Of a stretch of 64,000 bases of DNA, positions 26,363-60,700 are shown in pieces (the stretch's first letter is position 1; every line of letters begins with the position of its first letter). Source of the stretch: Vermamoeba vermiformis (lineage: Eukaryota); assembly GCA_045837725.1 (NCBI GenBank), contig JBEWZL010000044.1, forward strand, positions 310,001 to 374,000, given 5' to 3'. The position numbers and the translations under genes were made by a program. The notes under the pieces were generated by a model, which made no database searches, was not told the origin of the DNA, and was given only the letters and a program-made list of their open reading frames with translations.

Positions 26363-29005
26363 CTATTTGAGATTCATTATCAATGCTCGCACGAATATCT
26401 GCTCGTATTTGGTGGACTCGAAGATGACACCCGGATTGTCGGATGGACAGCGCAAGAAATTGGGCGCGAAGACCATGGCCAAGTTGTTGACGGTCATCTT
26501 CGTCTTGTCTTGATTTTCAGGTGCTGCAACGAGCTGCAAGTACTTCACCATGTAGTGCACCACACGTTGATGCAGCTCTGGCAGTTGTGCGATCAGATCG
26601 AGCATGGCTGGCACATCTTCGCGCTTAGCAGCCTCAATGCAAGGGTCATATAGATGCTCTGGTATAATAGGTTCGTCGAGTTCGCGCAGCCAGAGCTTGA
26701 GCAGACCTGCAGGCACGTGTGGGTCTCTTGTGCGCACCGTGTAGTCCCCGGACTCAATCTGCAAGCGGAGATTTGTGATGGCATCGCCGTCACCTGGCAC
26801 GCGGAATATACCTTCAGTCACGTGACCGTTGCATGCAGCAACAGCATCTGAGAGCACTGTGAGCACATAGGGCAGTGGTGAGGCAGGTGCTTGGTGATAG
26901 ATCTGCGAGTACAACACAGGCGCGGGGGGCTGGCCTTGCAACTTCTTGTTTTGGCTCTCCACGATCTCTTCTAGGCGACTTCCAAATATGGAAATTTCGA
27001 ATGGTGCAATCTGTTGAGTATTATTAGCAAGGCCACAACAAATCAAAAGACAGTGCGTACTTTGGTCCGTTCAATTTCTTTCACAGTCGGCACACGACCA
27101 CGAGCCCCGAGCGAACAGACTTTGGGCAAGCGGCGCAGACAATAAGCAGCATAGGCGCGCAGTTTGAGGTCTTCGAGCTTGAGCTGCTCTTTGATGTAGC
27201 TCAACAGCCACTGCTCCAAGTCTTTGGTGGGCGGGAAGTACGAGCAGGCAATGCACATCAAGTCCCAGCCCTTGTACGTGCCCTCACTAGCAAAGAGATC
27301 AATATTCGCGTCAGTGCGTTTGACACGTGTCACTTACAGATCCGGATTAAGCGTCGTTTGTTTGCAGAGTTGACAGTAGAGTTCATCGCGCAGTTCGGGC
27401 ACATTGATCGCTTTTTCCACAATTTGTTGCGCTACTTGATTGATGTCGCGCTTGCTCGGCTTTTCACCCATGTATGTTTGCACCACTGACAGCGGTCAAT
27501 ATTAACAACGACGTCTAATGACTGTTGCACTTACTCTTAAACAGATTGACGGCCTCTTTGGTAATACTCGCTTTGTTCATTTTGAGCAGCGAGGTCTTCA
27601 GCGCCTCTTTGGACCACTTGAGCAGTTCTTGCAGCGGAATGGCTCGTCGAAACACTCCTTTTTTGGCAGTTTGGAAGTATTTTTTCGCGTAACCTTCGAG
27701 CTGAAACAAATTGATATCTCGCCTCAGATCATTGGTCAAATTTGTGCTCGGCTGCAGCTAAAGTTAGCAACACGTGTCAACATGTCAATTAAATTTTAAA
27801 GTCTATCTCACCGGTGCTCCGCGTGCTGTTGTTTCTAAATGAGAATTAGATTAGCGCTGTGGTATACAACTTAATTGCAGTGAGTATACTTACTGTCGCC
27901 AGCGGCATCTGTGTTGGAGCGAGGTTTGAGATCAAGCTGTCACGTGTTAGATAGACAGACACTGCGCAACATGTAACTTACATTGGACGGTGAGCTCGGG
28001 GGCACATAAGTACTCGAGGGCGGTGTGTTGCCGTTGTACAAACTGTTTGGCTGGCTGTAATTGGTGCCACTGCTGCCGTCGCTGATTTGACGCTGCACAG
28101 CAGTGCGTTTGGGCGGCAAGGGCGGTGTTGAGACTGGAGAGAAGTTGGGACTGCCCGTGCGTGCTGAGAGTGGGGGCGGGAAATTGTTCGGGATGTCAAT
28201 GTTGCTCGAATAGTCGCGCTGAAGTTGCGGCGAGGCAGGCAAATACCCTGAGGTGATGGAGCGTGTCAAACCGCCTGACTTGGCGAGCGGTGAGCTCGGG
28301 TAGGGTTTGTTGCGCGCTGGTGGAGTGGGAGGTGGGGAGGGCAAGGGCGGCAGATGGGAGGGCACTGAGGGCAGATTGGGTGGGGGAAGGGGCAGATCTG
28401 GCAGCACTGAGGGTGGCGGTGGCGGTAGATTAGACAGTTGAGGTGGCGGTGGTAGTGTGGCGAGGGGTGGGGGCAGTGGTGCTAGTTCGGATTCGGGCTC
28501 TGAATATTCGGGGTCTGACTCGTGGTTGGGGTCAGATGCAGCCTCTGCGCTGTCACCTTGATCAATACTGCCACGAACAGCATTTGGTGGTGGAGGTCCA
28601 AGTATATTGCGTAATTGCTTATCGTCAGCAGAGCTTAGCGGGATTGGATGCACACGTAACCCTGTTGGCAGCTCCCAATATGTTTCTTGCTCTGTGTTAT
28701 TGTAATAATATGCTGCATTTGTATTTTCATCATATAATTCCCACCACTCTGGTAAAGCGTTTTGTCTATTGAAATTAAATTATTCAATTATTTTTTTTTT
28801 GGATCATTAAATTTCGACCTACAAGATATTATTGCTGTTTGGTTTTGTCCACCTGCATTCTCCAGTGTTTGCGTTGGCATAAAATAAATAATTCGTGGTC
28901 GGATCTGTCAGCTCGTACCATCGGTCGTTAGAATTAGATCTGTTTGGAAAATTAGCTTTGGTGTTCCGTAGCATTTATGATTATATACCGTCCAAACCGA
29001 CTCAT
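26363..29005 (-). CDS. WW + proline-rich + MyTH4 + RhoGAP protein (ARHGAP39/Vilse-like)
   Basis: WW: RWYELTDPTTNYLFYANANTGECRWTKP. MyTH4: ELRDELYCQLCKQTT...GWDLMCIACSYFPP. RhoGAP: EGIFRVPG, LLKLWLRELDEPIIP and KMTVNNLAMVFAPN. Confidence 0.9.
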
Positions 29006-29393
29006 GGCAATTCGATGAGCATTGGTTCTATATTTACAAATTGCTTGTGTAAATGAATAATGATTTTGTTGGGAGAGGTGATTCGGCGAGATTTTTTGTT
29101 AAATTGATTCAACGTCTGTGATCGAGTACATCACATAATACGACTCATTTGTTGATGGAGTCCGCTGAATAATGAGAACGAGTATCGTCTGGGTAACACA
29201 ACGGAATTGCAACATCGCTGGAATAAACTAAGGATCGCCTCCTTGTGCTCCTTAAACTGCACAACTGACTCTTTATATAATACAATTGAGTATTCGTTTA
29301 CCTTTTGTTGGTTTACTTCACTGTCTTGCCACCCATTTTCGTTGTTGGTAGATCCCGCCTTATTTGAATAACACAACACCTCAATGAGCTGAC

Positions 29394-32300
29394 ATGACAA
29401 GCCACACGTATAATATTCGTGGCGTTGAGGTCAAATTTCCTTATGCTGCCTATCAATGTCAGCTGATTTACATGGAGAAAGTGATCGAATGCTTGCAAGA
29501 GGTAAGATCTGCACTGCAAAATCACGTAATAGCCTCGCCAATAATTTTAAAATATTTTTTAACACCTTAACGACCATTCTGATTTCTTTCTGGCGATGGC
29601 AAGCAGTTATCAATACCAAGAAAAATTCAAATAAACAGCTTGAAATAGCGTTCCGACCCCACTCTTAATTACAAAATTATCATCAATGTATTTAATATTC
29701 ACACTAGTCTCATTTAACGGCCGTTACTGACCAGTACACATCCAGGGCAAGAACGCGCTGCTCGAGAGTCCTACAGGCACAGGTAAGACACTCTGCCTCT
29801 TGTGCGCTTGTCTCGCTTGGCGCGAACACATGGCGCAACAGTTGCGCGGCAGTCAGGGGTCGTTGGGCTCGGATCAGGCCTCGCTTGAAGCGGAACAACT
29901 GCTGAGTGCGGCGACTGACCCGCGCAACAAACTGCCGCTGGTGATTTATGCCTCGCGCACGCACTCGCAGCTGTCACAAGTCATTCGCGAACTCAAAAAC
30001 ACGGCTTATCGGTGCGTATTTGACACAGGTCGGTGATTGACACGTGTCACTGATGATCTTTGCAGACCTCGCACGAGCATACTTGGATCACGTGCGCAAA
30101 TGTGTGTGCATCCCACGGTGTCAAGTGTCAAAGGCAATGCGCAGAATGTCATGTGTCGCCAACACGTCGCGTCACACAAGTGCTCGTACCACGACACGGT
30201 GCAAGGTGAGTGCGGTGTGTGTGTTCAGTGAAAATTAACGCGCGCAACAGAAATGAAGAAAAAAGACGAGCTGATCAATCAAATCTCCGACATTGAGGAC
30301 TTGGTCACGCTGGGCCGCGAACAGACCACGTGTCCGTTTTATTTGACGCGCGAACTGCAACACAAAGCTGACATGCTGTTCATGCCGTACAACTACCTCG
30401 TGGACTCGATGATCCGTCAGACTCTAAAAATAGATCTCAGCAATGCGATTCTCATCTTCGACGAGGCTCATAACTTGGTGAGTGCTGTGCAGTGCGTACT
30501 GACATCTGCTGACACGTGTCAAACAGGAGTCTGTGTGCACCGAAGCAGCCTCGTGTGACATCACCACCGATGATCTGCGCGGCTGTTTGAAAGAGATCGA
30601 GCGCGCAGTGAAGATTGTGTCGTCCACTGGCCACGACTATGCCGCGCAAGTGGTGCCTGACACCGACGACATTGACGACTCGATGCCTGGCACGAGCGGC
30701 ACTGATCACGTGGATGCGAGTGAATTCATCAAGCTGAAAGGTAGTGTTATATAAATAAGGATGTATTGTTAGGAAGTACTGACTGGTGGCAGTGGTGATT
30801 GAAAAGCTGAAAGACATGATCGAGAGCATGACACTGCCGCGCGACGGACTGACCGAGAACGGTGCAGCCATCTATCAACTGCTCGAGAAAGTGAAGATCA
30901 CTGCCGAGACGAAGAGCACTGTGCTCGACACCATCAACACGGTCACGAGTGTGTTGACCAGCAGCGAGGGCACGCGATACAGCAATCTGCACACGTTCAG
31001 TGAAATACTGCGCAAGTTGTTCATGGAGGGCTTTGACGTGACGCAGACCTCGCAGTACTTCAAGCTGCACGTGCAGGTGTTGAACAACAACAACAAGGGC
31101 TTCAAGAAAGCTACGATCATGAATTTCCAAGAGACGCGCAAACTCAGCTTGTGGTGCGTGAAACAATCGAGCAGTGACACGTGTCAAATACTGACCTGCA
31201 TTGTGACCCTCAGGTGCTTCAGTCCAGCAGTGGCCATGAATGACTTGCGCCACTTGGGCATTCGCAACATCATTCTCACTTCAGGCACGCTCTCGCCACT
31301 CGATGCATTTGCTTATGAAATGCAAACGTACGTCATGCGAGGCACTTCTTCTGTTGTAACACTTTCCAAATTAGGGAATTCCCAATCCGACTCGAAAATC
31401 CGCACGTGATTCACCGCGGCCAAGTGTGGGTCGGAGTGGTGCCCGAAGGACCCTCGGGCATTGCACTCAACTCCAAATTTGACAACCGCAACTCCGTCGA
31501 GTACCGCCAATCACTCGGCCACTCGCTGGGTAAGTCATATAGAAAGGCTATTAATAGCACTCGTCTGACAGCCTGTCGTCAGTGAACTTGGCGCGTATCG
31601 TGCAGAAAGGCGGGCTGTTAGTGTTCTTCCCCTCATACGACGCACTGTCCTCGGCCGTGGAGTACTGGAAGACACCGGTACGTGTGCCCTCCATGGCATT
31701 AATGCGACTCTGATGCATGACCACCAATATGATTGACTAACACCGCGCTAGATTGGAGACAATGCCGAGACAATATGGGACCGCATCTGCAAGTCCAAAC
31801 AGATCATCATTGAGCCGCGCGAGTCCATGAACTTGACTGACGCCATGAACGACTTTTACGAGAAAATTCGAGACCCGGACTTGAAAGGCGCGGCATTCTT
31901 TGCGGTGTGTCGCGGCAAGGTGAGTGAAGGCTTGGACTTTATGGACGACAATGGCCGCGCGGTGGTGATCACTGGCCTGCCCTATCCGAATCAATTCGAC
32001 GCCAAAGTGCGACTCAAAAAACAGTTCTTGAATGAGATGCAGCACAACCCCCACGCACTCAGCCTCGGTGTCAAGGTACGTGTCACATGTCAACCGGTCA
32101 CCTCGCTAATGACACCTGTCAACAGCCCTTGTCCGGGGATGATTGGTACAAACAAAGTGCCTTCCGAGCTGTCAATCAGGTAAGTACAACACAAGTCTCC
32201 ATTTGACACCTGTCATAACGCGTGTCATTCACAGGCCGTGGGACGAGTCATTCGCCACAGTCGCGACTATGGTGGCATTATATTGTGCGATGAAAGGTTC

Positions 32301-33884
32301 AAAGGCGCGTCAAAGTACTTGTCCTCGTGGCTGCGGCCGTACTTCCAAGTGTTTGACAAATTTGGCGAGGCACTCAAGTCACTGAGCGGCTTCTACAAAG
32401 AGGTCGATGCCAACATTGTGTCCAATCACAGCAAGTCGACCAATCAGCTCGCACTCGGCAAACAAGCGCACAGCAGTGAGTCCCTGGCAGTTCAATGTAT
32501 CGCACGTGACTTACCATATTTAGGCATCAACATACACGACAGCATTAAAGAGATCAATCAGTCGCGCGGCAATGTATTCACGCGCTTGAAAGAACAGAAG
32601 GTGCGTTCTATAAATAGCTTTGTGCACGAACTGACCAATCAGCAGCAAGAGAAAGAAGACAAGACCCGCACGAGCAGTGACAATGCCCCCAGCACTAAAC
32701 AGCTGACCATTCACACCAAAAAACAACAAAGTTCGCTCGAGTTCTTAGCACTCGTTAAAGAGCTCTTGGACCGTGCCAAATACAAGTTGTTCACCGTGGT
32801 CATGAAGAAATATCGCGCCAAGACCGTGGACAATCACGCCATGTGCCACGAAGTGCTCGAGATATTTGCAGATCAGCCGGTGCTGCTCGATGGATTTGAA
32901 AAGTTTTTACCTGAAAAACAGCGCGATTATTGGCGCAATTTGGTGACTGCAAAGATCAAAAGCGAGACAGCGAGTGCCGACAAAGAGGTGACAGCATTGA
33001 CGGCGAGTGGCACGACGAATAATACGACCGATGTGAATACGAACACTACTAAGACCACTGCGAACACGACCACAACAGGCGTGCAAGACACTGATGCAGT
33101 GTTCTTGAAGCCAGTGCCTGTCGAGAATGATCGCAAAGAATTGATCTCAACACGCGAGATTAAACCACGTGCCAGCGACATGACCTCATCGAACAGTGCA
33201 ATCTCGCCGCCAGATCGTGGTATCAAGCGCAAATTCAACGAACTGCTGACAAGTGACGACGAGCTGCAGTCCTCGCCGAGCACACGCGACTATCCGCACA
33301 AGAAGTCGAAGCTGAGCGAGGAGAACAAGATCATTCAGATCACTGACACCAGCAGTCTGGAGCACGAGACCACTGACACTGCGCTGCAAACACGACCCAA
33401 ACCCGCCCTGGTCGATGTGCTGCAAATATCCGATGAACTCAAGCCTGCAAAGACGCCTGAAAAGCGTGAGATGATGTCGCCGAAGAGCCGTGTGATCTAC
33501 GACCTCGTGACTGGACTGCCCACCAAATCCGCTAAGAAGCCCAAGCTGCACAAGAGCGGACCAATGAGTGACAACACGAACAACGAGTCGCAGCACGGCG
33601 AAGTGATCTCGCTCGAGGACAGCGAGGGCCAGACTCGTCCCAGCATGAGCAAGAGCGCGAGTGACATCAGCTCGGTGCGCAACAGCAAAGAAGAGCCCGC
33701 GGAGCAGAGTCCGCAGTGTCCGATCTGTCTGAGCAAGCTGAAAGAGCCCTTTATCTCGGTGAAGTGCGGACACATGTGCTGTTATCTCTGTTGGCTGCAG
33801 TGGTTCAAGACCAAGCTCGAGTGTCCGGTCTGTCGGGAACGCACGCGCGAGAAAAACTTGAAAAAAGTGTTCTTTTACATGTAA
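29394..33884 (+). CDS. RTEL1: RTEL1-like Fe-S DEAH helicase with harmonin/PAH-like domain and C-terminal RING finger
   Basis: IRGVEVKFPYAAYQCQLIYMEKV, LLESPTGTGKTLCLLC, YASRTHSQLSQV, FDEAHN, ILTSGTLSPL, AVCRGKVSEGLDF, GRVIRHSRDYG, and a C3HC4 RING CPIC...CGHMCCYLC...CPVC. Confidence 0.9.
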
Positions 33885-33966
33885 ATACGCGAGGACTGTT
33901 CATACAAAGCCCAGTCGTGTATTATTTGATCTGTATATTATTATTTGATTTATATTATTACAACTG

Positions 33967-34763
33967 TTACTCGCGGTGTTGGGCTCGGTACAGTGCATGA
34001 ACGGCATCAAATTTCTGTTGCAGCTCTGGATACTCGCGCAGTTGATCACGTGCCAGCTGCCAATCAAAGCGCGAATTCTTTTCGTCACGTGCCTCACCAT
34101 GCAGTGCAGTCATGATGCAGCGCTCGAAGCCCAGCAGTGTCAACAGCGCCGAGAGCAGTGTCGCGTCAGTCACGTGCATCGTGTCAGTCACGTGCTTGTA
34201 ACGGCGTGTCAACCAGGGCCAATTCCCGTCACGTGGCCACGTGCCAGAGTACGACGTGGCCGCAGCGAACCAATCAGCAACGAGTTCTATCAGCGCCTCG
34301 TCTGTGACACGTGTCAGTCAATCTCCCACATATCTCCGCTGTCACTGTACCTGTCATTCGCGCACCCTTGTAGTACTCGTGGTGGTGGTCGTTGTGCTCG
34401 TAGTGATGACGCCACGCGGCTGCGTACTCAGTGGATGTACCTCCTGAACTGTGGTAGTGGCGTGCATAGGGCCAGAACTCGGCCGCTTAGATAACAAACT
34501 GAATTAAGTATAGTGCCATATCTCTATCATAGTTATTGGGGCATTACGCGAGAACTTGCTCAGATCGTGCAACAAGAGTCTGCGCCACGTGACGCGCAGT
34601 CCAGTGCCCGCTAAGATCTTGTTGAGCCATACACTAATTATATTTAATACATAGCGTAGTATCGCAGCTAAGCATACCCCGCGAGGATGATCTGCCACTT
34701 GTGATGCAGCACGGTGAGTATCAACGAGAGCGCTGCTTTTAACGAGGAGAATAAGGACCACAT
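33967..34763 (-). CDS. DUF5662-like (HD-type, His-rich) protein, 4 exons
   Basis: Reconstructed MWSLFSSLKAALSLILTVLHHKWQIILAGVWLNKILAGTGLRVTWRRLLLHDLSKFSPAEFWPYARHY...AAAWRHHYEHNDHHHEYYKGARMTDEALIELVADWFAAATSY. The HK, HDxSKFS and WxHHxxxNxHH motifs and ExxxDW are characteristic of DUF5662. Confidence 0.75.
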
Positions 34764-35212
34764 GAATACTATACTATCCGCGCTACTGCTGTATTCAATC
34801 AATACACAGTGTTTGGTCCTGTGGTGTTCGCTGTGAAGTCAAGTTCGAAATGTAGTGAATTCAGGAACGATAAATTAATAGTTAGGAACATGACACGTGT
34901 CAAAAGGAGCTGGCAGGTGCACCTTGCTGGCAATATTACACGAAGATAATAGATGCTACAAGTGACTTGTGAATCTGAGTAGTAAACAGTTCAAATGCGC
35001 CAATCAGTATCCAGGAGTGAATCAAGTACTATTCAATTGGTCACTTTCTAAAGACACTGACGGTGTTCAGTAGTGGACTACTCGAGGGGACATTTGTTTT
35101 ATTTTATTGCTGATCTACAGCACAACGACAGCACAGTACTCGATTGAATAATTACAAGGGCATTAGTTTTAGTATATATACTGTATAATATCAACTCGAC
35201 TATCAGAACACG

Positions 35213-35963
35213 ATGAGTACTGCTAAGTATCCCATGTCCAGAAAGTAAGTCAAGCAGGCCAATAATTTTCCTATTATTTTTACCGCCATAAATATTATGA
35301 ATACAATGCCCACAGCAGTATAATACTGGTGATTTATTTATTTTAATATTTTGGTAATTATTCTCGATCTGAACGTGCTGCTAGGGACACGAGTCAAGCC
35401 AAGTGTCAGAAGTGCTTGCAAACAGGGCACTATATTTATCAGTGCAAGAACGAAGCGGTGTACAAATCCAGACCGAGTCGCTCCACCTGGCTCAGAAAAC
35501 CCAGCACCAGACCTGCCTTTCAAACTGACGACAAGCCTCCCGACACCAACTCTATGTAAGTAATAGCATTGTAGTCGCACATCACTGTAAAGGCGGTCAA
35601 ATTAATGCAGCCACATCCAGGTACAAACAGATGAAAAAAGAAATGAAAAAGCTCAAGCGAAAGCAAAAGAAGAAGAAGAGACACTCGAGATCATCCTCAT
35701 CAAGTAGCAGCAGTAGTTCTAGCAGCTCTAGCAGTTCTAGCAGTGACAGTGACAGCGAATCCAGCAGCGGATCAGATTCAGAGAGTGATTCTGAGTCTTC
35801 AAGCAGCTCTTCGTCTTCGTCTTCATCACGTAGTCAATCATCATCATCATCATCATCATCATCGAGTAGTGATAGCGATGATGCAAACAAAAAGAAACGT
35901 AAACGATCTGGATCTGAATCTGACTCCGAAAAGGAACGCAAAAAAGCAAAGCGGGAAGATTAA
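35213..35963 (+). CDS. ZCCHC10: Zinc-knuckle protein with Ser-rich tail (ZCCHC10-like)
   Basis: Spliced KCQKCLQTGHYIYQCKNEAVYKSRPSRS (CX2CX4HX4C plus RPSR), followed by a Lys-rich and poly-Ser low-complexity tail. Confidence 0.8.
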
Positions 35964-36127
35964 TAGTACCAATTATGTAATATACGAGTAAATTTCATTG
36001 CCTCCATTAACTACTAGATTGAAATTCTGTTAAATTAGCCGAAATTCACGAGAGTTGACTCGCGGAGGAATTATTACTCATGTTTTAAACCCCAATCAAA
36101 TTTAAATAACAATAACAATAATATAAC

Positions 36128-37990
36128 ATGGCTGAAGATAATGACCTCGCGCGCAGTGATATTCTCGATGCAGACAATTATGAAGAGCTGATCGACGATG
36201 ATGACGATTACATGGACGAAGATGATGACGACGACATGTATTTCGATGATGTTGTCGAGACTAAGCCCACCACTATGCGCAAGAACAGCACTCTAGCACC
36301 GCCCTCCAGTTCTGGCAATAATCCTAACAAATCCAAAGACTGTTATGAATTTCAGGTGAATAACGCTCGTTAATTTTTTAAATATTTTATACATATGTGA
36401 ATTGAATTATTATAATATAATTTCCAAAAATCTTAAAACTCTCAGCTTCGTTGGCAAAAAAATTTTCGTTTTGGGATTTGGGTTCGAGTCTTATTTTATT
36501 CAACCAACGACTAATTATCCTTAGGTTACATTTGAAAATGATATATATGGCGTGGAAGTGGCCAAAGAAGGCAATGTGTATGATCTGAAGAAAGCCATCT
36601 CAGAACGTACTGGCGTCGCACCAGCCAATCAGCAGCTCGATGGCTTTGCAATGCCCGCGCACGAACTCACTGACGACTTGCCACTGCTCGCACTCGATGT
36701 CATGCCCATGCACCCCTTGCTGCTGCGCCAGTTCAAGCCTGTCATTGTAAGCTTTGCGATAATTATTTGAATCACGTGATCACTTTAACTGACCAATCAC
36801 GTGCTAGAAAAATGTGACAGCCAATCTGCAAACAGCCAAGACACACGACTTGACACTCGAAGACTTCACCGCGCTGTGGGACACTGCGACCGTTGACGGC
36901 GATGCATTCACCGCACAGTTCGAGGTTTGACACTTTGACACGCGATATTTGCAGCTATCACTCACAGCACTTATTTGCAGGAATTGTACGGACCAGTGCA
37001 CCCGACATTCAGAGGAGCGCCGTACAATGAATTGACCAAATTTCTCCGCACGCGTCACCAGCTGTGCGTGGTGCTGTTGGATGCGGATCTGAAACTGCAC
37101 TCAGAACTGCTCGAATTCTATTCGCAGACCATCACCTCCGAGTCACTCGCACAACTGCTCGACACCAATTTTGTCACGTGGGTCGGTCAAGTGGACCTCG
37201 AAAAAGAGCTCGAATTCCAGCAATTATTCGGCGAACCCATCAAATTTCCTTTTTTGGCAGTGATCGGTTACATCGACAACAATCTCACGCTGCTGACCAC
37301 GCACCAGGGCCAGCAGATTGGTCCCGATGAATTGATGGGCAAACTGATTGAACTGCTCGACACGTACGGTCCTAATTTGGAAAAAGCCAAAGAGCGCAAG
37401 TGAGTATTCTCTGAACCAGCGTGTGATTCACTTCCTTATTGACACGTGTCATTTGCAGTGCGGAGGCGGACAGGAAGCGCATGGAAATTGAAGAGCAGAA
37501 CCGTGCCTTCGAAGAGAGTCTGCTCGCTGACCGGCGCAAAGAAGAAGAGCGCCTTGCTGAAGAGAAGAAACAACAGGCGCAGTACACTTCGGGATTGACA
37601 CGTGTCAAACAGGCGCGTGAACAAGCACTCGCCAAGTTGCAAACATTGCCCGCAGAACCAGCGCCAGGTGTCAAAGCCGCGACCATTCAGATTCGACTGC
37701 CCGATGGCACCAAGTTACAACGGAAATTTCCGGCTGATGCACTGCTGCAAGTGGTGCTCGACTTCACAGAAGGCTCCGTGGCACAGCTGTTGCAAGACAC
37801 GACCTTCTTGGACGACAGCACGCCTGATCTGCACGCGCCTGACGTGCGACCGTGGAGCATCACCAACTACGAGTTCGTGAACAACTTTCCCAAGAAACGC
37901 TTTGACGACACAGCGCTCACTCAGTCACTGGCGGCACTGGGCCTCGCACCACAGGGCATGTTGTTTTTGCAAGAGAAGAACAAACAATAG
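36128..37990 (+). CDS. FAF1-like UBX protein (ubiquitin-like + UAS thioredoxin-like + coiled coil + UBX)
   Basis: VYDLKKAISERTGVAPANQQL (UBL), ELYGPVHPTF...FPFLAVI (UAS), EEQNRAFEESLLADRRK, and IQIRLPDGTKLQRKF...NFPKK...LGLAP (UBX). Confidence 0.88.
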
Positions 37991-38111
37991 CCTTATTTGG
38001 TCATCAAAACAAATACATCTGTAATTAACTGCTGTAATTAAACACAACTTCGCTAACAAAAGGTTTTTATACAAAACAAGATTTACAATACCAGCACTAT
38101 TTATATATCGC

Positions 38112-39412
38112 TTATTCATCGCCGCCTTCGTTGTTGCCAGCATCGCCGTCAGTGATGCCGTTGGTGCTGATGGCAAAAGTAGCTTCAGCTTCAGGCAGAC
38201 ACGGCGAGTCGTACACCTTGCACACACGCAGATCACCACGGCCCTTGCGCAGTGAGAGACGAGTGGTCGAGGCGTGGGCCATAATATTGCCTCCAATAGG
38301 CTTCTTGGGGTCTGGCGTGAACATGGAGCCACCGTCGACTTGTGCCACGACTTGATTGGTGATCACAACGGCCACTCCGAACTCATCGGCGATACGCATC
38401 AATGTGCGCAAAAATCTGCAAATACGTGTTAATGTGAGGTCTGCAGTGATGCCCAAATATAGTAACGTACTTGGCGAGGTGCATTTGACGCGCACTCAAT
38501 TCACCACGGCCACTGTAGTCAGTGCGGTAGAGGGCGGTGGCTGAGTCGACGACAACGAGTGCAAAGCGCGACTCGCTCATCATTTCACAGGCCTTTTTGA
38601 GCAGCGACATCTGATGGTCGCTGTTGTAGGCCTTGGCGTGCGCAATGTTCTCGAGCACATCGTCACCCGACAGACCATAGCGCTCAGCAATAGCGAGAAT
38701 ACGCGAGGGTCTGAAGGTGTTTTCAGTGTCGATGTAGAGTGCTTTGCCTTCAGCACCACCTTGATCCACGGGCAGTTGACAAGTGACGCACAGTTGATGG
38801 CAGATCTGGGTCTTGCCTGTTCTGAATTCTCCAAAAATTTCGGTAATTGATCCAGTCTCAATACCACCTGTTATAGCGCACGATCAGATGATGCAATGAA
38901 TTTTAATTATTTTTTCCACGTATTGTAATTTAGTGGAATTTTTTTCAACTCACCATCCAGCAGCTTGTCCAGTGCTTGCGATCCTGTAGAAATTTGAACA
39001 ATATCTTCACGTGCAATATGATATTCACGAGCAGTGGTAAAGCCCATGGGCACCAGTTTAGCAGCTGAAAAATTAAATAATTAATTTTTAATTTGCAACT
39101 AACGCCATAATAAATAATTATTACCTTCAGCAAGAAATTTATCTGCTTTGGCCTCGCTAATACCCTTCAACGCAACTAACGCCTTTTTAGGAGCAAAAGC
39201 TACAGATTCAACCGTGTAAAATCCGTGCTCAGCTAACTTTTTGCAATCACCCTCAGTAATACCACCAATACCCTACAATATTATTTTAGTATGTGCTACC
39301 GCTTTTTGCAAATCCGATTATTTACGGCTAATTTGGAGATCGGAAGAGGACCACCGATCTCTTCTTCTTCCGCGGCTTGTTGTTGTTGTTCCTTGGCCTT
39401 GGCTTTAGACAT
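38112..39412 (-). CDS. RAD51: DNA recombinase RAD51
   Basis: [55 protein letters not shown] and [16 protein letters not shown]. Confidence 0.97.
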
Positions 39413-39624
39413 GGTTGTTATTGTCGTTGTATTGTGGAAACACTGAGTTTTGGATAAATCAAAAAATAAAAAGGCGGTTCAAAATTCTTGGAAAGAAATG
39501 TCGGGTTTTACTTCGGGAACCCGAACGACCGGTAATTCACGGATCAACTCAGATCACGATTATTTTTACCCATTGTGTAGAACATTCAATAAAGGTGCGG
39601 ATCCTCGTGGTATCAGAAGCAAAC

Positions 39625-40878
39625 ATGGATGTAAGAACTCCTTCACAACAACAAATACAGCAAAATGCCCGCAAATAATTCTAATCACCTTTATCCTGAC
39701 AGCGGAAAGCACAGTTGAAGAATTTGATGAAGAAAGAGCGACAAGATCGCACCCAGAAGATCGATTCACCTTTAGCCAAATATCCTTTTGATTCTTATTC
39801 TCCTGAGTTATGCTATATTTATTGTCATTTTTTCTTAATTTTTGTTGCACGTATAACAGTGCCGGACAATTGTTGTGCATTCTGTGTCAAACTCCAGTAC
39901 AAGCTGACTCGCTATGGGACGCGCACTGCAAGACAAAGAAACACTTAGAGGTAAGCGATATGTTGATATATTTATTATAATACATTAAAACTGTGCTCGG
40001 GATGCTGATCCGCACAGGGCTTGGTGGCACTCAAACAAGCCAAAGCAGCCAAACAACAGAGCGGGGCTGTCAAGCGCACTGCTTCAGAGGTGCCGAGTGA
40101 GGACGAACAGCCTGTCAAGCGTGTCAAAGTGACACCTCTGAGTCAGACACCAGTCCCCGCACCTGCACCGCAAGCCGCCGAACCAGAACCCGAATCATCC
40201 GCGCTAGTGACGTACGACGAAGAAGAGCCTGAGCCCGAAGAGGTCGAAGAGAGTGGCTTGGACGCTGACACCGTGGCGCAGCTCGAGCGCGAGATGATGA
40301 GCGAAGAGGAGATCAACAAACTGATCGCACAGTCACGTGCCACACAGCAGAGCGAGGAGATTGAAGTGGAGGTCAATCTGCCTGAAGGATTCTTCGACGC
40401 ACAGCACGCTGAGAGAGCTGTCAAAACTGTCAAACAGGCACCAGCACCCACCACTGACACGTGAGTAAACGTCATGCTTGGCAACTAGGCATTGACACCT
40501 GTCAAACAGGAGTGCGGACCAGGAGTGGGACAAGTTCCAAGCGAGTCTTCCAGTGACAGGTGATGACACAGTGTCAACCGCACGCCCAGACGAGCTTGAA
40601 GATGACACGCGTCAAGACGAGGAGCCGGACATTGACACGGAGCAGATTGAAAACGAGATTCATGAAGAGCTCGAGCAACAACAGTAAGTGACACGTGTCA
40701 AATCGAGGGCTGTACTAACGGCACGTACAGGTCACTGCTATCTCGCTTGATGGAGATTAAAAAGAAAGCAGCGGAACAACTCTCGCAACCAAAAAAGGCA
40801 GTGCCCAAAGAGGTCGAAGCCAGTGACGAGGACGATGATGACGTGGATCCATTTGATTGGCGCGCTAAAGGGTTCTGA
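39625..40878 (+). CDS. ZNF830: ZNF830/CCDC16-like zinc finger protein
   Basis: Spliced IDSPLAKYNSAGQLLCILCQTPVQADSLWDAHCKTKKH, plus LPEGFFD and C-terminal DWRAKGF. Confidence 0.88.
39780..39850 (+). other. U12-type (minor spliceosome) AT-AC intron
   Basis: 5' end ATATCCTTTT, branch-like TTTCTTAAT about 11 nt before a terminal AC. Its removal restores SPLAK-YNSAGQLLC. Confidence 0.9.
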
Positions 40879-41072
40879 ACCTCTGTTTGACACGTGTTGA
40901 CATGTAAATAATTCTGAGTGACAGTCGTTTATTTGAGGCTATTATGGGCTGTTATTTGTGTCGGGCCAGGAATGCTATTGTAAACTATTGCAAAGTCTGA
41001 TTATTGATGACTGGCCTGTCAAAAGTGTCAAACTCAGTCCTCCACGCTGCGCTGGTGTGTATTCGTGCTCTT

Positions 41073-41847: not shown

Positions 41848-41849
41848 TG

Positions 41850-41857
41850 TTTGGCGC
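41850..41857. promoter_or_regulatory. E2F-like site TTTGGCGC in the MOG1/ORC2 divergent promoter
   Basis: Matches TTTSSCGC between head-to-head MOG1 and ORC2. The motif is short and could be chance. Confidence 0.3.
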
Positions 41858-42064
41858 TGTGTTGTGGTAGCAAATTGTGCTGAGTTAATAAAGCAGTGGT
41901 TGTGCTGCTATTTAAGCGTGAAAACAATAAAAGTTGTTGAACGATTTTTTGTGTCTTTTTCTTGGCCAGTTGCGCGCCTTTTTATTTGAATAGTTTGTTG
42001 CGACCACCACAACTGCGGCTACTAACACTGCGTTATAGCACAGACTAACCACAATTAAACAAAT

Positions 42065-45824: not shown

Positions 45825-45979
45825 CTTCTGTACAGCTCAGTGACACGTGTCACTCACCGTCTTGTAATAAACTTTTGTATTTGACGCAGTGGCGTGTTAC
45901 ATACAATTTTAGTTGCTAGATCTGGATGTCAAATTACAATGTGCTTGCTAGGCCCCTAGTCTCGCGGAATATGCTGCAA

Positions 45980-49487: not shown

Positions 49488-50587
49488 ATGCACCGTTTCG
49501 TATTGGGACTGAGCACTGTACTGCGCACCACAGCGACTAATAATTGCTCGCGCGCTATATTTAGACACTACTCGACGCGCAAGTCAGATCCGCTTGTCAT
49601 CAACGGCACGCACCTCGCTGAGCGCATCGTAAGTTCATTCAGCCCTCTGACCCCAGCCTCTGACCACACTTTCAGACCCAGCACGTGCGCCACCAAGTCA
49701 CTGCCTTCACTGCCGCACAGCAGCGCCGTCCTTCACTCGCCATCTATCTCTCCACGCACGCGCCCCCTGACTCGCTGCGATTCGTGGCCAAAAAAGAGCA
49801 GGCCTGTCACGTGACTGGCATTGAGTGTCACGTGATCAAATTGCCGCACGAGGGCAGCACGGCGGAGTGGCGCGAACACATTGCGCACTCGCCGCACGAT
49901 GCCGTGGTGGTGCAGTGGCCCGTGCCGAGTCAGATCGACTTTGACACGTTGACAGCTGCCATCAACCCCGTGCAGGATGTCGATGCCTTGACACCTGTCA
50001 ATGCGGGGACTCTGGCACTCGGTCAAACACCCTATCACGTGTCATGCGCTACCCTCGCCGTACACGAGGCCCTGACCGATGCTCTGCAACAACTGTACCC
50101 CGAAGTGCCACCTGCCACACTGCTGTCACGTGTGCGCTGCGTGCTGATTGGTCAGTCGGTGGTGGTGGGCAGACCACTGCTCAATTGGGCCCTCAATCAC
50201 CACTTGGGCTCGATCAGCACCATTCATCGCGACACCCCTCGCGTGATCAGTCAACAATTGGTCAACGCGCACGTGACTGACCCCCACGTGATTCCCGTGC
50301 TCATCTCCGCGACAGGAGTGCCGCACTTGCTCGTGCCCGACACTGACACGCGCGCGAGTGAGGACAAGTTGCGTGTGGCCGCGGGCCAGATCCTGATCGA
50401 CATTGGCTTTCATGTGGACCCGCGCACTCATGTCGTGCTCGGAGACTTCTCACCGCGCTGTTACGCGACATCACGTGCCTACACTCCCGTGCCTGGTGGC
50501 ATTGGGCCACTCACTGTTGCACTCTTACTGCGCAATGTCGTGGCTGCTGCCCAACTGAAAACGCGCGGCAAGGGCACTGTTGCATAG
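49488..50587 (+). CDS. folD: Methylenetetrahydrofolate dehydrogenase/cyclohydrolase (FolD family), probable mitochondrial presequence
   Basis: VINGTHLA, VVQWP, INPVQDVDAL, IGQSVVVGRPL, IDIGF and TPVPGGIGPLTVALLLRNVV. The N-terminus is Arg-rich and lacks acidic residues. Confidence 0.88.
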
Positions 50588-52609: not shown

Positions 52610-53927
52610 GACTGCACGTCCCCCAACCATACATTTTATAGTACCAAGTTTTTAATAGGATTTCTATATGCCATGTATGTGGTTAAGCATATTCTCATAT
52701 AAAAAGGTTTGCCACTATGCTGGACAAAGTTACAACATAAAAAAGTATTACTAATGCAAAAAAATTTGGACAGTTAGGTGACGATGAATTGTAGCCAAAG
52801 TTCAGTGGTGCATAAAATACGTATCGTTGTGTTGTGCCAAACATGTGCTGATGGATGGGTTGAAACTTAATGCCGAAAATTTACAAATTGCTGTTACCGC
52901 AATAGCTTTGACAATTACATATTTTCTTGTTATATAGTCCATGTATTTCCAAAGTTAAAATGTTTTTGCAGCATATAGAACAAAGTTCCAGTACATTAGT
53001 TCTTTGCAGAACAAGGACATTTTCAGCCTCCATCGGTTAGCCCAAAGCCTCCTGATGCCAAAAGTAGTCCTTCTTGGGTCCGTTGGTGCATGGCAAAGTT
53101 TGGTATAAGTTGGTCAATTACTAACATCGACGGGATGTCTGCCACTGGGGATGTGGGTTCTTTGCAGGCGGGCACGAGCAGGTGAACCAGCAGGCACTTT
53201 GAGGTCAACTATCCCCTTGAATAAGGTATCCAAAGCAATGCAATCTTGCTAGCAGCTCAATTTTGCCCTTCAGTCTGAGATCTGAATTTGACGGCGTGGA
53301 CAATCTCTATGTTCATTGGAGTGTAACCTGGAAGCGTGGCTCAAAAATGAAGCCAATCACAGGCCAGAGGCAGAAGGTCAACAATTCTTCATAGAAATTA
53401 GTCATAATACACTACTAATCTCCAATCTGCTGATCAAATTTGGTCTTGGACCAGGTGTCCCTGCGTGATATAGCATCGGATTTCAATAAGATTTAGATAT
53501 TATATACATGTTATGATTAAGCATTTCCCTCATTCGGGATTTGCCACAGCTGGACATAATTAACAGATAAATTGATTTTGCGTAATTGTTAATTGCAGGG
53601 CTGTCCGCCAAAATTTTTTCATCCGTCTGTGGACATCATCCATCCGTGGTCACTGCAGCGTTGATGTTAGTAATTGACCAACTTATACCAAACTTTGCCA
53701 TTTGTACCAGCAGGACCAAGAAGTACTACTATTGGTATCGAGAGGCTTTGGGGTAATCGCTGGAAGCTGAAAATGGCAATGTTCGCAAAGAATTTACGTA
53801 CGAGAACATTGTTCTATTTGCTTCAATACCATTTAAACTTTGGAAATACCTAGAACCATCACTTTATACATGGCAATAGAAAGCTGATTAAAATCCCATA
53901 CTATATATGGTTGGTGGATGTGTGGTC
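52610..53927. mobile_element. Degenerate nested inverted-repeat (foldback/MITE-like) element
   Basis: Perfect 39-bp inverted pair 53090-53128 / 53663-53701, extending imperfectly to about 52943 / 53849. Outer inverted pair about 52610-52678 / 53866-53927. Degenerate direct repeat about 52672-52740 / 53507-53570. No credible ORF. Confidence 0.6.
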
Positions 53928-55544: not shown

Positions 55545-55607
55545 ATGCCCTGCAGTGCTGTTATTCGCCGTGAAATATTTACAAGTTGACACTTAAGTTG
55601 ACAGGTG

Positions 55608-57537
55608 TCATTTGCGGTACTTCTTCAGTGAGGAGCTATTATTAGCCTTGTTGCTGTTCTTTGCAGATTTGTTTGCAGTCTTGTTCGATGAATGAGTCGT
55701 TGACGCGTTGAATTTCTCCGCACCAGACTTTGACACTTTGTGTTTGCGCAAATTCTCCGCCTCTTCTTCTCGTTTTCGTTTCTTTGCATTTGTTGATTCA
55801 GTGGCATGTGACACGTTATCGACCTCCACGTCAGTATTGACACGTGTCACTGCAGCAGTGTCGTGATTGAGCACGTGACCGAGCGCCGCGTCCTCGTCAT
55901 CTTCGCTCCACTCCTCCACTGGCACTGTGCCACTACTCTTCTCTTGGTCTCGGCGCTGTTCTATGCGACGCTGATTGACACGTGTCAGCAAGTGTCATTT
56001 GTACTAATTAGGCAACACGTACCTGTTTGAGCTCGCGATGTCGTTCAAAGAATCCGCTCTCATCGAGTCGCAGGCGTGCCACTTGAAAGGCCTTGAGCGC
56101 GGGATTGAGATACTTGAGCACGTGCTTCTCTTCGTGCGCGTACTCCTCGAGCTTGCGACCCAACTTGCCCTCAATGTACTGCAGCAGCGTCACTTCGTAC
56201 TGACTCACCAGACTGATTGCACGACCTTGCCGTCCCTTGCGCGCAGTACGACCCACGCGGTGCAAGTAGTCGCGATAGGAGCGCGGAATATTGTGATTGA
56301 CGACCAGTGCCACGTGACCAATGTCGAGACCTCTGCTGGCGAGATCGGTGGCAATCATGATGCGCTTGACGCCCGATTTGAACAGCGATATTGCCTCGGT
56401 GCGCTTGAGCTGCGATTTCTGCGAGTGCAAGGAGACCACGGGCAGCGTGAGCTCGTTCAACATCTCACTCAACAGCTCGCAGATCACTTTGTTGGCGACA
56501 AACACCACGCACGAGGCAGTCCTGTCGCTGGTCTGCACGAACTGATCGAGCACGTAGGCCAGGTAGCAGTCCTTCACAGTCTGCGGCATGAACAGGTACT
56601 CTTGGCGCAGTGTCGTCACGGTCTCAAAGTTCACCGTCGTGTCGTATCTGAACGGCTTGTTCAGTGAAAGTTGTCCTAATTTGGCAAGATTCTTGGTCAT
56701 GGTGGCAGAGAAGAGCAGTGTTTGACGCTTGGCTGGCACTTCGCGCAAGATGACGGGCAGTTCTTGCACAAAGTCACGTGACAGCAGGCGATCAGCCTCG
56801 TCCAGAATCACGAATCGAATTCTTTTCAGCGACAGCAGCGTGTTGCTCTGCGTGCCCTGTTGTTGCAGACAATAGGCCAGACGACCAGGCGTCGCAACGA
56901 TCACGTGCGGCACTTTGTACAAGAGATTGAGCTGCTCTTCGATCTGATCGCTGCCGCCCACCATCACTTGTACCCGTAAGTGCACGGAGGCACCCAGAGC
57001 GCGGAACACATCGCCGATCTGCGCCGCTAACTCGCGCGTGGGGGTGAGCACGAGGGTGTGGGGACCGTAGGGCTCGCGCGACCAGTCCACCAGACTCGGA
57101 ATCGCGAAGCAGAGTGTCTTGCCCGAGCCTGTCTGTGCGCAGCCAATCACATCGCGACCACCAATCGTCGCGGGCAAAGTGTGGCGCTGGATCTGCGTGG
57201 GGCGATCTACTCCGAGTCCTGCGAGGGCAGTTTTGAGCCATTGAGGTATTTCAGGCATATCATCGAAACTCTTAACTTCGCGATGCGGTTCACTGGCGGT
57301 GCCTTCGATCTCTTCTGTCTGATCGTTATTTTCATCAAGTTGTTCTTCGTCTTGCAATTCTAGTTCGGTGACAAAATCTTCTAGCTCTTCTTTGGTTTCA
57401 ATTCTGCTCTTGGAACCATTATTTGTGTTATTTGTTAATTTTACTGCATTATTTTGTAATTCTGTCTTCTTATTTGAAGTTGTTTTATTCGCCGATGGGG
57501 CTGAAAATAACGCAATTTCATCGTCCGAATCTGACAT
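55608..57537 (-). CDS. DDX49: DEAD-box RNA helicase DDX49/Dbp8
   Basis: AQTGSGKT, EPYGPHTLVLTPTRELA, DEADRLL, FSAT, ATDLASRGLDI and HRVGRTARKGR. Confidence 0.9.
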
Positions 57538-57775: not shown

Positions 57776-60700
57776 TCAAGAGCGATTCATAGCGACTATC
57801 TTGTCCTTCATGGCTCTTAGTTCACCCAATATCTCGGTGAATGGTGGTCGTTTGGTCGCATCTCCCTTCCAACACCGCTTGATCAGGGCTGCGAGAGGTT
57901 TGGGACACTGCGCAGGGAGCTTGGGCCGCTTGTTCTTGTCGCACACGAGCTTCTTGAGCTCAAAGATGTCGTGCACGTCTTCAAAGGGCTGTTTGCCACT
58001 GACCATTTCGTAGAGCAGCATGCCGTACGAATAGACATCGGCCTCCTTGCTGTAGCGCGACTTGTTGTCTTTGCGCTTGCCCGTGAGCACTTCAGGGGCC
58101 TCCCACTTGGGTGTGCCAGCCATGAGTGTCATGCCCTGATCGATGTTGATGTCGCGACTCAGTCCCAGATCTGCCACTTTGGCGACATCTTCGGCGCTAA
58201 TCTGTAAGTGAGCTCATTAGTACGGGCACTGATTGCACAACGATGCCAGTACAAGGCACTTACGAGTACGTTTTCGCTCTTGAGATCGCGGTGAATAATG
58301 TCGAAGGAGTGCAAGAAGATCATGCCCTCCGCAATCTCCACCGCGTACTTGAACACCTTGTCCGTGGACAGCGGGGCACGCTCCACCACTGATTTGAGCG
58401 AGCCTTGGTGCATCAGCTCCGTCACTATCATGAACACACCTGCAACACTGTGTGAGTACCGCGCCTGTGTACATAAGGTGCGAGTGACGATTACCCTCTT
58501 CATCGCGCCGCTGTTCAATGCACGCGCCTTCGAATCGGACCACATTCGGATGCGAGATCATGCTCATAATGGCCACCTCGCGGTAGAAGTCTTCGAGTCT
58601 GAAGGCAAACGAGGACTCGCTGAACACTTTGATCGCCACATCGTGATGATTGTACTGGCCCGTGTACACCTTGGCGAATGCACCTGCTCCCAACAACTTG
58701 CCGCGCTGCAGCTGCGTCTGTTTGATCTCTTTGCTGATTTGCAGCTTGCCTTGGCGCGCAAATTCGAGCAGGGAGGGCAATGCTCCTTGTTTGCAGAGCA
58801 GTGTTTTGAGTTGATCTGCAAAGATGAAATGACAGGTGTCAAACAACAATCTCCACACAAGTCACGTGTCACTTACCGTTGTAGCAGAGATTGACCAGGG
58901 CACGTGCAGCAGCAATGCGCAGCTCTTCACTCTTGCCGCTCTTCATGCGCTCCAACAGTCGCTCCAAGGCACCGCTCAACTTCTCCAGTCGATAGTCGTC
59001 CGAGGACTGCTTCTCATTCGCTTTGGTCACGCGCTTCACCATGGCATCGCGGATGTCTTCCGCACCCGATGCGAGCACGGCAATCAGATCGCACGCATCG
59101 CGCTGCACGTACTCCTTGCTGCCCGTGAGCAGATTGAAGATGAAGATGACGTCGTAGTCGAGTATCTTGCGCTTGATCACGTCATTGTCGCTGTCGTCAT
59201 CTGCAAATTTGGCGAGGCAGTAGAGTGCTGCAGCCATGATACGATCAGGCACATCGCGCAGATTGGAGGACTCGCGCACGAGAGCCAATCGGAGCAGTGC
59301 TGTAACGAGCTCTACAATGCTCTGCTCGTCGTTCTTGAAGCCACTCAGCACGAGAGACTCGCTCTCCAACACTGCGAGGGCCCACTCAGCCAACAACATG
59401 TGCGCTGATCGTGCGAGTGGTGCAATCAAGTGCAGTGCTGCATCGTGCACAATCACATCGGTGAGGCGCGCATTGAGAGCCAGACACGTGTGCAGACTGC
59501 TGCTCTTGCTCGTCTTCTTCTTGCGCGGACTGGCGACGCTGTTGCTGGTCGGTGGTGTCGTGCTGCCAGCAGTGCTCGTGTCAGCAGTCTGTGTGCTGCC
59601 ATTGCTGTTGGTGCTCGAATTGAGGCCATCACCTTCCTCACTGACCTCCTCAGAGATGATATTCAGCGCTGGTTTGCTCGTGTTGTTGTTGACGGCAGTG
59701 TTGAGTGCGACAATGTTGTGCGGCGTGAGATTGAATCGCGAGGGCCGTGAGAATGGACCGCTCAAGGGATGACTGATCTTCATGCCCTCCAGCACTGATT
59801 TGCGACGCTGCTTCACCTCTTCTTTCTTGAGATCTGACACGCGCGTGTTGGGCAGGGAGGTCAGTGTCGCTGGTGCACTGGGCTCGTTCTTGTTGTTGTT
59901 GTTGTTCGTGCTGGGACTGGTCTTGCTGTCCGCGACATCTGCCCCCGTGAGCACGTTCCACACAGTCTGCAGCTTGGAGTAGAAGGAGAGCAGTGGTGCG
60001 GGGGCATCGCTCTTGCTCTTGGGCTCGCTCTTGCTCTTCTCAGGCACGATCACCCCTGTCTTGTAGAACTCGTTCAGCAGCTCTTGATCGCCGGGCAGCA
60101 CGGTCTTGCACAGCGGATAGAGCGCTTCAATCTTGGGTGTGAGCAGAGTGACGAGATCACGTGCCACTGAAGAGATGGAGGACCGCTCACTCTTGCTGAA
60201 CTGTTGGGACTGCAGCTCTGCTATGAAGGCCTGATAGCGCGCAATGGTGTGCAGGTGCGCACTGAGGTACTGCTTGACACAGCTGTGGTACACTGACACG
60301 AGCAGCTTCTTCTCGCCACTGCTCCACTGCTTGTCGCTGTTCAGATCGCGATATCGCTGCAGCAGTGCATCGACCTCTTCTTTGCCTGGCAGGTGCTTGG
60401 CATGCAAGCGGTACAGACGCAGCAGGGGCAGTGCGTGCGTGCCACTGAGTGCCGTGCCGGATGTGCGTCGTGCCTGAATGCGCTCCTCGTGCAGGGTGAT
60501 AATGCGCCGCAGACAGTTGAGGTCAGCGTGGACAGCATGGCGGAACAATGCCACCATATCTCCAATGTGATCTGCCAGCTCCCACTTGTTGACCAGCAGT
60601 TGCGCGTCGATGCCCTTGAGCAGTGTGAGCAATGCACTGCGCGTCTCGCTCTCACTCGCCACACACAGCTCCAACACCTCGCGCAGCTCGTCTTCTTTGA

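Follow-up and report, generated by a model that had tools for sequence, protein, structure and literature searches.

The DNA analyzed here is a window of 64,000 nucleotides (nt) from Vermamoeba vermiformis (contig JBEWZL010000044.1, positions 310,001 to 374,000 of the forward strand; all positions below count from the first letter of the window). It is eukaryotic nuclear DNA with short GT..AG introns, and one protein encoded in it has its nearest named relative, at 82 to 87% identity, in a EukProt entry of V. vermiformis. Vermamoeba is a host of giant viruses and of Legionella, and to our knowledge almost no cis-elements have been described in Amoebozoa. The subject of this study is a 12-bp element, two inverted TGACA half-sites around a 2-bp center, of which the window contains 27 exact copies. 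The genes that carry it encode a RhoGAP/WW protein (1 copy), an RTEL1-like helicase (5), a FAF1/UBX protein (2), an unnamed product near 40 kb (2), ORC2 (2), an R3H-SUZ protein (7), methylene-tetrahydrofolate dehydrogenase/cyclohydrolase (MTHFD; 1), a DEAD-box helicase (3), and a MORN/Arm protein (1). Exact copies are absent from the window's genes for acyl-CoA oxidase, a class II tRNA synthetase, a dual-specificity phosphatase, a RabGAP, CDC20, and RCC1, and motif-free genes occur in the motif-poor half of the window and also inside the rich half.

Number, form, and placement of the copies

Counting by program, we found 15 copies of the palindromic form TGACACGTGTCA (center CG) and 12 copies of TGACACCTGTCA or its reverse complement TGACAGGTGTCA, 8 on the plus strand and 4 on the minus strand. 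These are exactly the numbers reached by hand in a first-pass annotation, made by a model from the letters of the window. Dinucleotide-preserving shuffles (n = 100) gave means of 0.00 for TGACACGTGTCA and 0.02 for TGACACCTGTCA/TGACAGGTGTCA, and Markov models trained on the window predict 0.004 (order 0), 0.033 (order 3), 0.74 (order 5), and 1.8 (order 6) copies of the palindromic form, which is the most over-represented word of the window (455-fold over the order 3 model). The annotation's estimate of far less than one copy by chance is thus borne out by the shuffles and by orders 0 to 3 (0.004 to 0.03). Because 15 copies are present where orders 5 and 6 predict 0.74 to 1.8 within the window, local 5-6-mer composition, which the annotation had named as one way in which its claim could fail, is no explanation.

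The form of the element is narrowly defined. Between the arms TGACA and TGTCA, the central dinucleotide is CG in 15 copies, CC in 8, and GG in 4, and no other dinucleotide was seen in the window; the same arms at spacings other than 2 bp occur 0 to 1 times each. The 2-bp spacing of the inverted half-sites therefore holds in all 27 copies, with invariant arms. By our own arithmetic, independent half-sites TGACAC and TGACAG at frequencies of 0.78 and 0.22 fit the observed 15:12:0 ratio of CG to CC plus GG to GC centers, with 1.3 GC-centered copies expected and none seen. Outside the arms, there is a weak and symmetric A-T...A-T preference, with A at position -2 in 24 of 42 oriented sites and the mirror T in 21 of 42. 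When the 24 gene-assigned copies were oriented by gene strand, flank preferences were strand-symmetric (chi-square P = 0.14-0.40), and both CC and GG centers were found on sense strands.

Twelve copies are intronic, 10 are coding, 2 coincide with or closely follow a stop codon, and 3 lie in unassigned or intergenic DNA (Table 1), which bears out the earlier description of a motif that occurs in introns, coding exons, and intergenic DNA. Transcribed gene bodies hold 24 of the 27. Placement is independent of promoters, as had also been claimed, with copies in exons, introns, and untranslated regions (UTRs), and the copies, at a local density of about 0.8 per kb, fall in coding and noncoding DNA alike. 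Ten of the 12 intron calls are predictions, based on GT..AG pairs that restore long open reading frames (ORFs) and, in RTEL1, on the continuity of Pfam domains; a protein search found no full-length RTEL1 orthologue for the exon borders. The intron of copy 10 is supported by the joint 37399>37459, for which RNA runs X21 and X23 supply one read each and runs X5 and X9 one transcript contig each. Contiguous transcript contigs span copies 11, 16, 17, and 18, which are therefore exonic. Intronic copies tend to lie 4 to 20 nt before the AG or directly after GTAAG. Two exons are bracketed by motif-bearing introns: a predicted 54-nt mini-exon of the RTEL1-like gene (32126-32179, between the copies at 32110 and 32204) and the exon 40510-40683 (between those at 40493 and 40689).

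Along the window, 26 of the 27 copies lie in one 32-kb half (27 to 59 kb); if copies were spread evenly, the chance of finding one or none in the other half would be 2e-7. The interval from 27321 to 58841 given in the first-pass annotation accommodates these 26 copies and misses the one at 2485. Seven of 25 gaps between neighbors measure 120 to 200 bp, whereas a uniform null predicts 1.5 such gaps and a within-gene null 1.9; the bin was chosen post hoc. These gaps suggest that sites are paired about one nucleosome apart.

Table 1. The 27 exact copies of the 12-bp motif. Strand is that of the CC form (. marks the CG palindrome, which has no strand); L001 and L002 are contigs of a related species.
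Copy	Position	Strand	Center	Context
1	2485-2496	.	CG	AT-rich left part of window, no long ORF
2	27321-27332	.	CG	Predicted 51-nt intron 27287-27337 of minus-strand RhoGAP/WW gene, right after GTAAG
3	30038-30049	.	CG	Predicted intron 30012-30065 of RTEL1-like helicase gene (+)
4	30510-30521	.	CG	Predicted intron 30478-30526 of RTEL1; 3' splice site 5 nt on
5	31175-31186	.	CG	Predicted in-frame 60-nt intron 31154-31213 of RTEL1, just past ARCH domain match; exonic reading possible
6	32110-32121	+	CC	Predicted intron ~32076-32125 of RTEL1, AG 4 nt on; beside 54-nt mini-exon
7	32204-32215	+	CC	Predicted intron 32180-32234 of RTEL1, other side of mini-exon
8	34305-34316	.	CG	Between RTEL1 stop (33884) and next gene, probably intergenic; CCAAT and GTCACGTG words nearby; low transcript depth
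9	34891-34902	.	CG	Unassigned/intergenic; low transcript depth
10	37440-37451	.	CG	GT..AG intron 37400-37458 of FAF1/UBX gene, RNA-confirmed; 3' splice site 7 nt on
11	37596-37607	.	CG	UBX coding exon, xTG-ACA-CGT-GTC-A; contiguous transcript contigs 37459-37930 and 37459-38007
12	40493-40504	+	CC	Predicted intron 40461-40509 of unnamed gene, AG 5 nt on
13	40689-40700	.	CG	Predicted 47-nt intron 40684-40730, right after GTAAG
14	42706-42717	-	GG on +	ORC2 exon 1, LTGVK; identical in L001
15	42861-42872	.	CG	ORC2 intron 42842-42892; center CC in L001, whole intron 33/51 identical
16	44521-44532	-	GG on +	R3H-SUZ exon, LTGVT
17	44650-44661	+	CC	R3H-SUZ exon, VTPVN; TGACAGGTGTCA in L001 (arms kept, center flipped, flanks diverged)
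18	45232-45243	.	CG	R3H-SUZ exon, MTRVN; sole alignable copy lost in relative (TGCCACGTGTAA in L001/L002)
19	45505-45516	+	CC	R3H-SUZ exon, VTPVN; kept in L001 and L002
20	45625-45636	+	CC	R3H-SUZ exon, MTPVT; unit 1 of 54-nt tandem repeat; kept in L002
21	45679-45690	+	CC	R3H-SUZ exon, MTPVN; unit 2 of tandem repeat; L002 position 958
22	45841-45852	.	CG	3' UTR between convergent genes, R3H-SUZ stop 16 nt before; kept in L002
23	49989-50000	+	CC	MTHFD exon, LTPVN
24	55599-55610	-	CC in sense	Minus-strand DEAD-box gene; first letters TGA are the stop of its last ORF (55608-55994)
25	55838-55849	.	CG	DEAD-box gene last exon, VTRVN
26	55976-55987	.	CG	Predicted 52-nt intron 55971-56022 of DEAD-box gene, AG 5 nt on
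27	58830-58841	-	CC in sense	Minus-strand MORN/Arm gene, predicted 61-nt intron 58816-58876, intron start GTAAGTGACACGTGACT

Flanks, codon choice, and retention in a related species

Comparison of the 30 + 30 nt that flank each copy gave a best pair with 28 of 60 shared positions, leaving aside the tandem pair 45625/45679 (37/60); random positions from the same region reach a mean maximum of 27.3 (95th percentile, 30). A repeat search of the window returned only families centered on the 12-mer itself and one 54-nt tandem repeat, and it found neither target-site duplications nor longer inverted repeats around the copies. Because their flanks are unrelated, the copies are not transposon copies. 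The first-pass annotation had reached the same view, again apart from one tandem pair, and had named flanks that align as fragments of one known transposon or satellite as a second way in which its claim could fail; the flanks are random-like, which removes that objection.

All 10 coding copies share one frame, xTG-ACA-SST-GTC-Axx (S, C or G), and encode Thr-[Arg/Pro/Gly]-Val. Of the alternative frames, the first contains TGA, which copy 24 uses as the stop codon of the DEAD-box gene, and the third would impose a cysteine. Among the ORFs readable in frame (the UBX stretch aside) there are 19 such tripeptides, and 13 of them are written ACA-(CGT/CCT/GGT)-GTC, whereas codon usage predicts about 1.6%. 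The constraint therefore acts on the nucleotides and not on the peptide. In copy 23, LTPVN lines up, with no gap, with FHPTN of the DVDGFHPTN block conserved in bacterial FolD; at least this copy was thus written by the choice of residues and codons and not by a 12-bp insertion. An insertion or excision footprint of 12 bp is ruled out as the origin of copy 23 by this alignment and is unlikely elsewhere, given the conservation described below.

These results leave next to no room for the view that the motif follows from composition, codon bias, or a repeated peptide or is an artifact of assembly. Ten copies do encode one type of tripeptide, and two do lie in the 54-nt tandem repeat, but 17 copies are noncoding, the Markov and shuffle nulls miss the counts by orders of magnitude, and the codon choice is far from expectation. 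The motif is also present in independent metagenome contigs, and X5/X9 transcript contigs span four exonic copies with no difference there among the 40 of 277 differences listed.

To follow the element across species, we used two genomic metagenome contigs, L001 and L002, which come from one metagenome scan, belong to a related species, retain their introns, and align to 42.1 to 47.1 kb of the window. Identity to the relative at the three codon positions is 0.858, 0.896, and 0.642; for two introns it is 0.65 and 0.50. L001 and L002 contain nine exact copies, each orthologous to a copy in the window, and eight of the nine alignable window copies are kept. These include the intronic copy at 42861 (CG to CC), the 3' UTR copy at 45841, and the copy at 44650, in which CC has become GG between intact arms and diverged flanks. 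Background 12-mers with all ten arm positions unchanged number 124 of 894 (same-frame coding) and 531 of 3,356 (all); at rounded background rates of 0.15 and 0.2, keeping eight of nine has a P of ~2e-6 to 2e-5. In the codons that make up the motif, four-fold degenerate third positions are identical at 12 of 13 sites in L001 and 9 of 10 in L002, compared with backgrounds of 187/311 and 61/107. Solitary half-sites TGACAS are likewise kept more often than the background (12/20 versus 0.284). Thr-X-Val peptides are kept in protein orthologues from three further sources, and one of these has Gly for Pro at two motif sites, which is the signature of a CC-to-GG flip. The element is under selection at the nucleic-acid level, because eight of nine copies are kept despite four-fold identity of about 60%, and the two centers that changed did so within the allowed set.

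Retention bears directly on whether the copies could be relics of mobile elements, that is, termini of miniature inverted-repeat transposable elements (MITEs) or introners, or excision footprints. The word is a short palindrome with TG...CA ends and often lies inside very short introns, and two motif-bearing introns, 40682-40723 and 42838-42879, have 81% reverse complementarity over 42 nt. However, the copies have no shared flanks, target-site duplications, or terminal inverted repeats beyond the 12-mer, and their positions are old and conserved: the same places are occupied in a species about 18% diverged, at which distance neutral sites are about 40% diverged and neutral footprints would not have lasted. 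The MTHFD copy did not arise by insertion, and the likeness of the two introns consists of splice site, motif, and branch site: the 5' splice site of one intron mirrors the region around the other's branch site, and the palindrome lies between them. We therefore regard relics of mobile elements as a very improbable source of the copies.

Candidate readers of the motif

The reading that we favor, tentatively and with a probability of about 0.45, is that the motif is a double-stranded DNA site for a TALE-like or other symmetric dimeric protein. Its two-fold symmetry, invariant arms, fixed spacing, tolerant C/G center, and symmetric flank preferences argue for a dimer on double-stranded DNA. The copies at 34305 and 34891, where transcript cover is sparse or absent, and the one between convergent gene ends (45841) point in the same direction. 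Enrichment, symmetry, unshared flanks, codon-level constraint, and cross-species retention are what we observed; from them we infer that a protein binds, to which family it might belong, and what its binding might do.

In the mechanism we propose, each copy would be a selectively maintained cis-element that is read as double-stranded DNA. The putative reader would be a symmetric, probably homodimeric, sequence-specific protein, and its site would consist of the two inverted TGACA half-sites around the 2-bp C/G center, together with the weak outer A-T...A-T preference. Such sites would be placed inside the transcribed bodies of a subset of genes, where coding constraint would decide how they are accommodated: in the Thr-[Arg/Pro/Gly]-Val frame, once through a TGA stop, and otherwise in short introns or UTRs. 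Candidate effects of binding are gene-body regulation and local chromatin organization.

Among known recognition patterns, the closest is the dimer site of TALE homeodomain proteins (MEIS/PKNOX/TGIF), which also consists of inverted TGACA half-sites with a 2-bp gap. In excerpts of PMC5449588, TGACAGGTGTCA is listed as the consensus of human MEIS3, a TALE homeodomain protein, from systematic evolution of ligands by exponential enrichment (SELEX). A TALE homeobox factor, EiHbox1, has been studied in the amoebozoan Entamoeba invadens, according to an excerpt of PMC11586516. The comparison with TALE dimer sites, first drawn in the earlier annotation, thus stands for the 12 GG/CC copies, which equal the MEIS3 consensus, and does not extend to the commonest form: for the 15 CG-centered copies, no published TALE consensus was found in the excerpts available.

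Several points weigh against a site of this kind. Most copies lie in gene bodies, including 10 in coding sequence and 7 in a single gene, at a local density that is itself unlike that of TALE sites; this is unusual for a transcription factor site, and there is no bias toward 5' ends or promoters. The TGIF-type TALE site TGACAGCTGTCA has a GC center, which occurs in 0 of the 27 copies, and the published TALE sites, as far as they are given in the excerpted sources, match only the GG/CC form. All of the evidence for conservation is drawn from a single relative, over about 5 kb of alignment. Sense-strand centers are CC in 10 copies and GG in 2, a possible hint of strand-specific constraint at the RNA level; this excess could alternatively come from the choice of Pro over Gly or from pyrimidine-rich introns. 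We would rate the element as a TALE-like dimer site with an apparently unprecedented, conserved distribution over gene bodies and within codons.

A second family of known sites, the G-boxes and E-boxes of bZIP and bHLH proteins, resembles the core of the motif. The CG form contains CACGTG and ACGT, and the CACCTG/CAGGTG of the other forms is a CANNTG E-box. The plant G-box TGACACGTGGCA, which an excerpt of PMC4415419 names as a HY5-related element, agrees with the CG form at 11 of 12 letters. Unlike a bZIP or bHLH site with an invariant ACGT/CACGTG core, however, 12 of the 27 copies have CACCTG/CAGGTG in place of the ACGT core while their outer TGACA arms are perfect. The arms and not the core are invariant, and the main contacts must lie in the arms, since the core is missing from 12 copies.

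The first-pass annotation had itself proposed a eukaryotic system like cyanobacterial HIP1 (GCGATCGC). In a true counterpart of HIP1, the palindrome would be spread genome-wide and kept by a DNA methyltransferase, repair, or recombination system rather than by gene-specific regulation. The resemblance is considerable: HIP1 is also a short, perfect, and hugely over-represented palindrome found in coding and noncoding DNA with unshared flanks, and its orthologous sites are retained above background (excerpts of PMC13756078 and PMC4390886). Here, too, we found an over-represented palindrome that occurs in coding and noncoding DNA among unrelated flanks, with orthologous copies kept in eight of nine cases against a background of 0.14 to 0.16. 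The MTHFD copy overlies a conserved block without insertion, through codon and residue choice, and a central CpG inside ACGT is present in 15 of the 27 copies. HIP1, however, is genome-wide and tied to two methyltransferases, whereas the element studied here has a degenerate center, a eukaryotic host with introns, and an uneven spread within 64 kb, with 26 of 27 copies in one half and none in the ordinary genes of the other half or in several genes of the rich half. Since 12 of the 27 copies lack the central CpG, a single CpG methyltransferase cannot read them all. We consider such a HIP1-like system unlikely. What survives of the proposal is the independence of position and the retention of orthologous copies; an even spread is not seen within the window, and in place of a process that generates the motif, which the annotation had also suggested, the data show retention by selection.

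A related idea combines features of both: a HIP1 analogue of Vermamoeba-like amoebae that substitutions would have created in exons, introns, and UTRs across large chromosomal domains, that selection would hold in place, and that a dedicated chromatin or architectural dimer would read at sites paired about one nucleosome apart. We hold this to be doubtful; if true, it would amount to a DNA code of gene bodies layered over the protein code.

Literature searches, which covered articles apart from their supplements, found no described equivalent in protists, in agreement with the annotation. In full texts, the two 12-mers turned up in 2 and 4 papers, only as primers or in one motif table, and searches for iterated palindromes in eukaryotes and for Vermamoeba palindromes or intron motifs returned only work on cyanobacteria or giant viruses.

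We also considered whether the element acts in RNA, either as the site of an RNA-binding protein in pre-mRNA or mRNA or through two copies that pair as a 12-bp duplex, loop out 110 to 185 nt, and modulate splicing. The 24 copies in transcribed gene bodies, the 12 in short introns with their positions near the 3' splice site or after GTAAG, and the CC excess on sense strands are in keeping with such a role. So are the close pairs, four of seven of which straddle a splice site or a whole exon (according to the intron calls), and the -19 to -20 kcal/mol that a two-copy duplex could reach. However, a single copy folds weakly (-2.1 kcal/mol), flank preferences are strand-symmetric, the arms are kept as sequence and not by compensatory changes, and copies exist in poorly transcribed DNA. 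By our own arithmetic, three of the seven close pairs have complementary centers (about 2.8 expected), and in the relative, full complementarity of a pair was gained once (ORC2) and lost once (R3H). Pairing between copies, though energetically possible, was rejected on these grounds: complementarity is at chance level, with one gain and one loss. A general splicing signal would be found in most introns at a fixed position; ten copies are exonic, and among 13 inspected RNA-supported joints (there are 30 more besides), only 1 has an exact copy, and the motif is therefore no general splicing signal. An action in RNA thus seems improbable to us.

If the motif is a site for a symmetric dimer, a free-living amoeba lineage would keep hundreds to thousands of precise protein-docking sites within its genes. 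Sites within codons would dictate codons and residues (Thr-Arg/Pro/Gly-Val), which would make them an unusually clean natural overlap of DNA and protein codes, and the element would offer a handle on gene-body regulation or chromatin organization in Amoebozoa.

Related words and other observations

Scans of other collections for close pairs of the motif returned 34 prokaryotic and 2 viral loci. The 10 prokaryotic loci that we inspected contain arrays of TGACAGCTGTCA with conserved flanks in Rhodobacterales-type bacteria, or tandem repeats, and none of these 10 has the scattered copies with unrelated flanks seen in the amoeba. The GC-centered TGACAGCTGTCA occurs in loci L022 and L009 (Rhodobacterales-type) and in L003, L013, and L023 (one metagenome-assembled genome) as arrays of 7 to 10 copies about 100 to 150 bp apart, with conserved flanks GAGT...ACTTT, or as pairs about 142 bp apart. 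These bacterial arrays and pairs look like iterons, partition sites, or MITE-like elements and are unrelated to the amoeba motif.

Within the window, CACGTG is itself abundant (101 copies versus 14 to 47 expected at Markov orders 0 to 3), and the relative retains 7 of 12 solitary CACGTG words, compared with a background of 0.28. The classical E-box flavor GTCACGTGAC forms a separate, weaker family (5 copies, 25-fold over expectation), and CAGTCACGTG has 9 copies; both words also occur in coding sequence, for example as Ser-His-Val-Thr. Examples of the CACGTG family lie at 44439-44450, 45135-45146, and 34167-34192.

Another quasi-palindrome, TTCA[G/C]TGAA, has 11 copies (0.9 expected from shuffles), at 2212, 6266, 17170, 30224, 30996, 44907, 44951, 44966, 51257, 52079, and 56660. 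Three of its copies are in the Asn-rich part of the R3H-SUZ exon, and the related word TTCAGTG lies in a strain-specific 15-nt insertion that the transcript contigs have at 44942.

In the RNA data, some reads have loose ends at the motif positions 27317, 27770, and 30035, and one joint connects 30526 to 45226; the loose letters are not found in the window with up to two mismatches. They probably come from other motif-bearing loci or from strain differences and were not used for any conclusion. The highest read depth in two raw-read RNA runs falls on 41203-41502, in a minus-strand gene without the motif. The raw-read runs have the joint 41314>41502 and many loose ends there, whereas transcript contigs have 41312>41360 and 41408>41502, which suggests differences between strains or isoforms.

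Finally, an AT-rich segment at 52938-53854, which is free of the 12-mer, contains nested inverted repeats with arms of 82, 70, and 43 nt, the innermost 98% complementary, and 526 to 777 nt between arms; it may be a foldback element or MITE.

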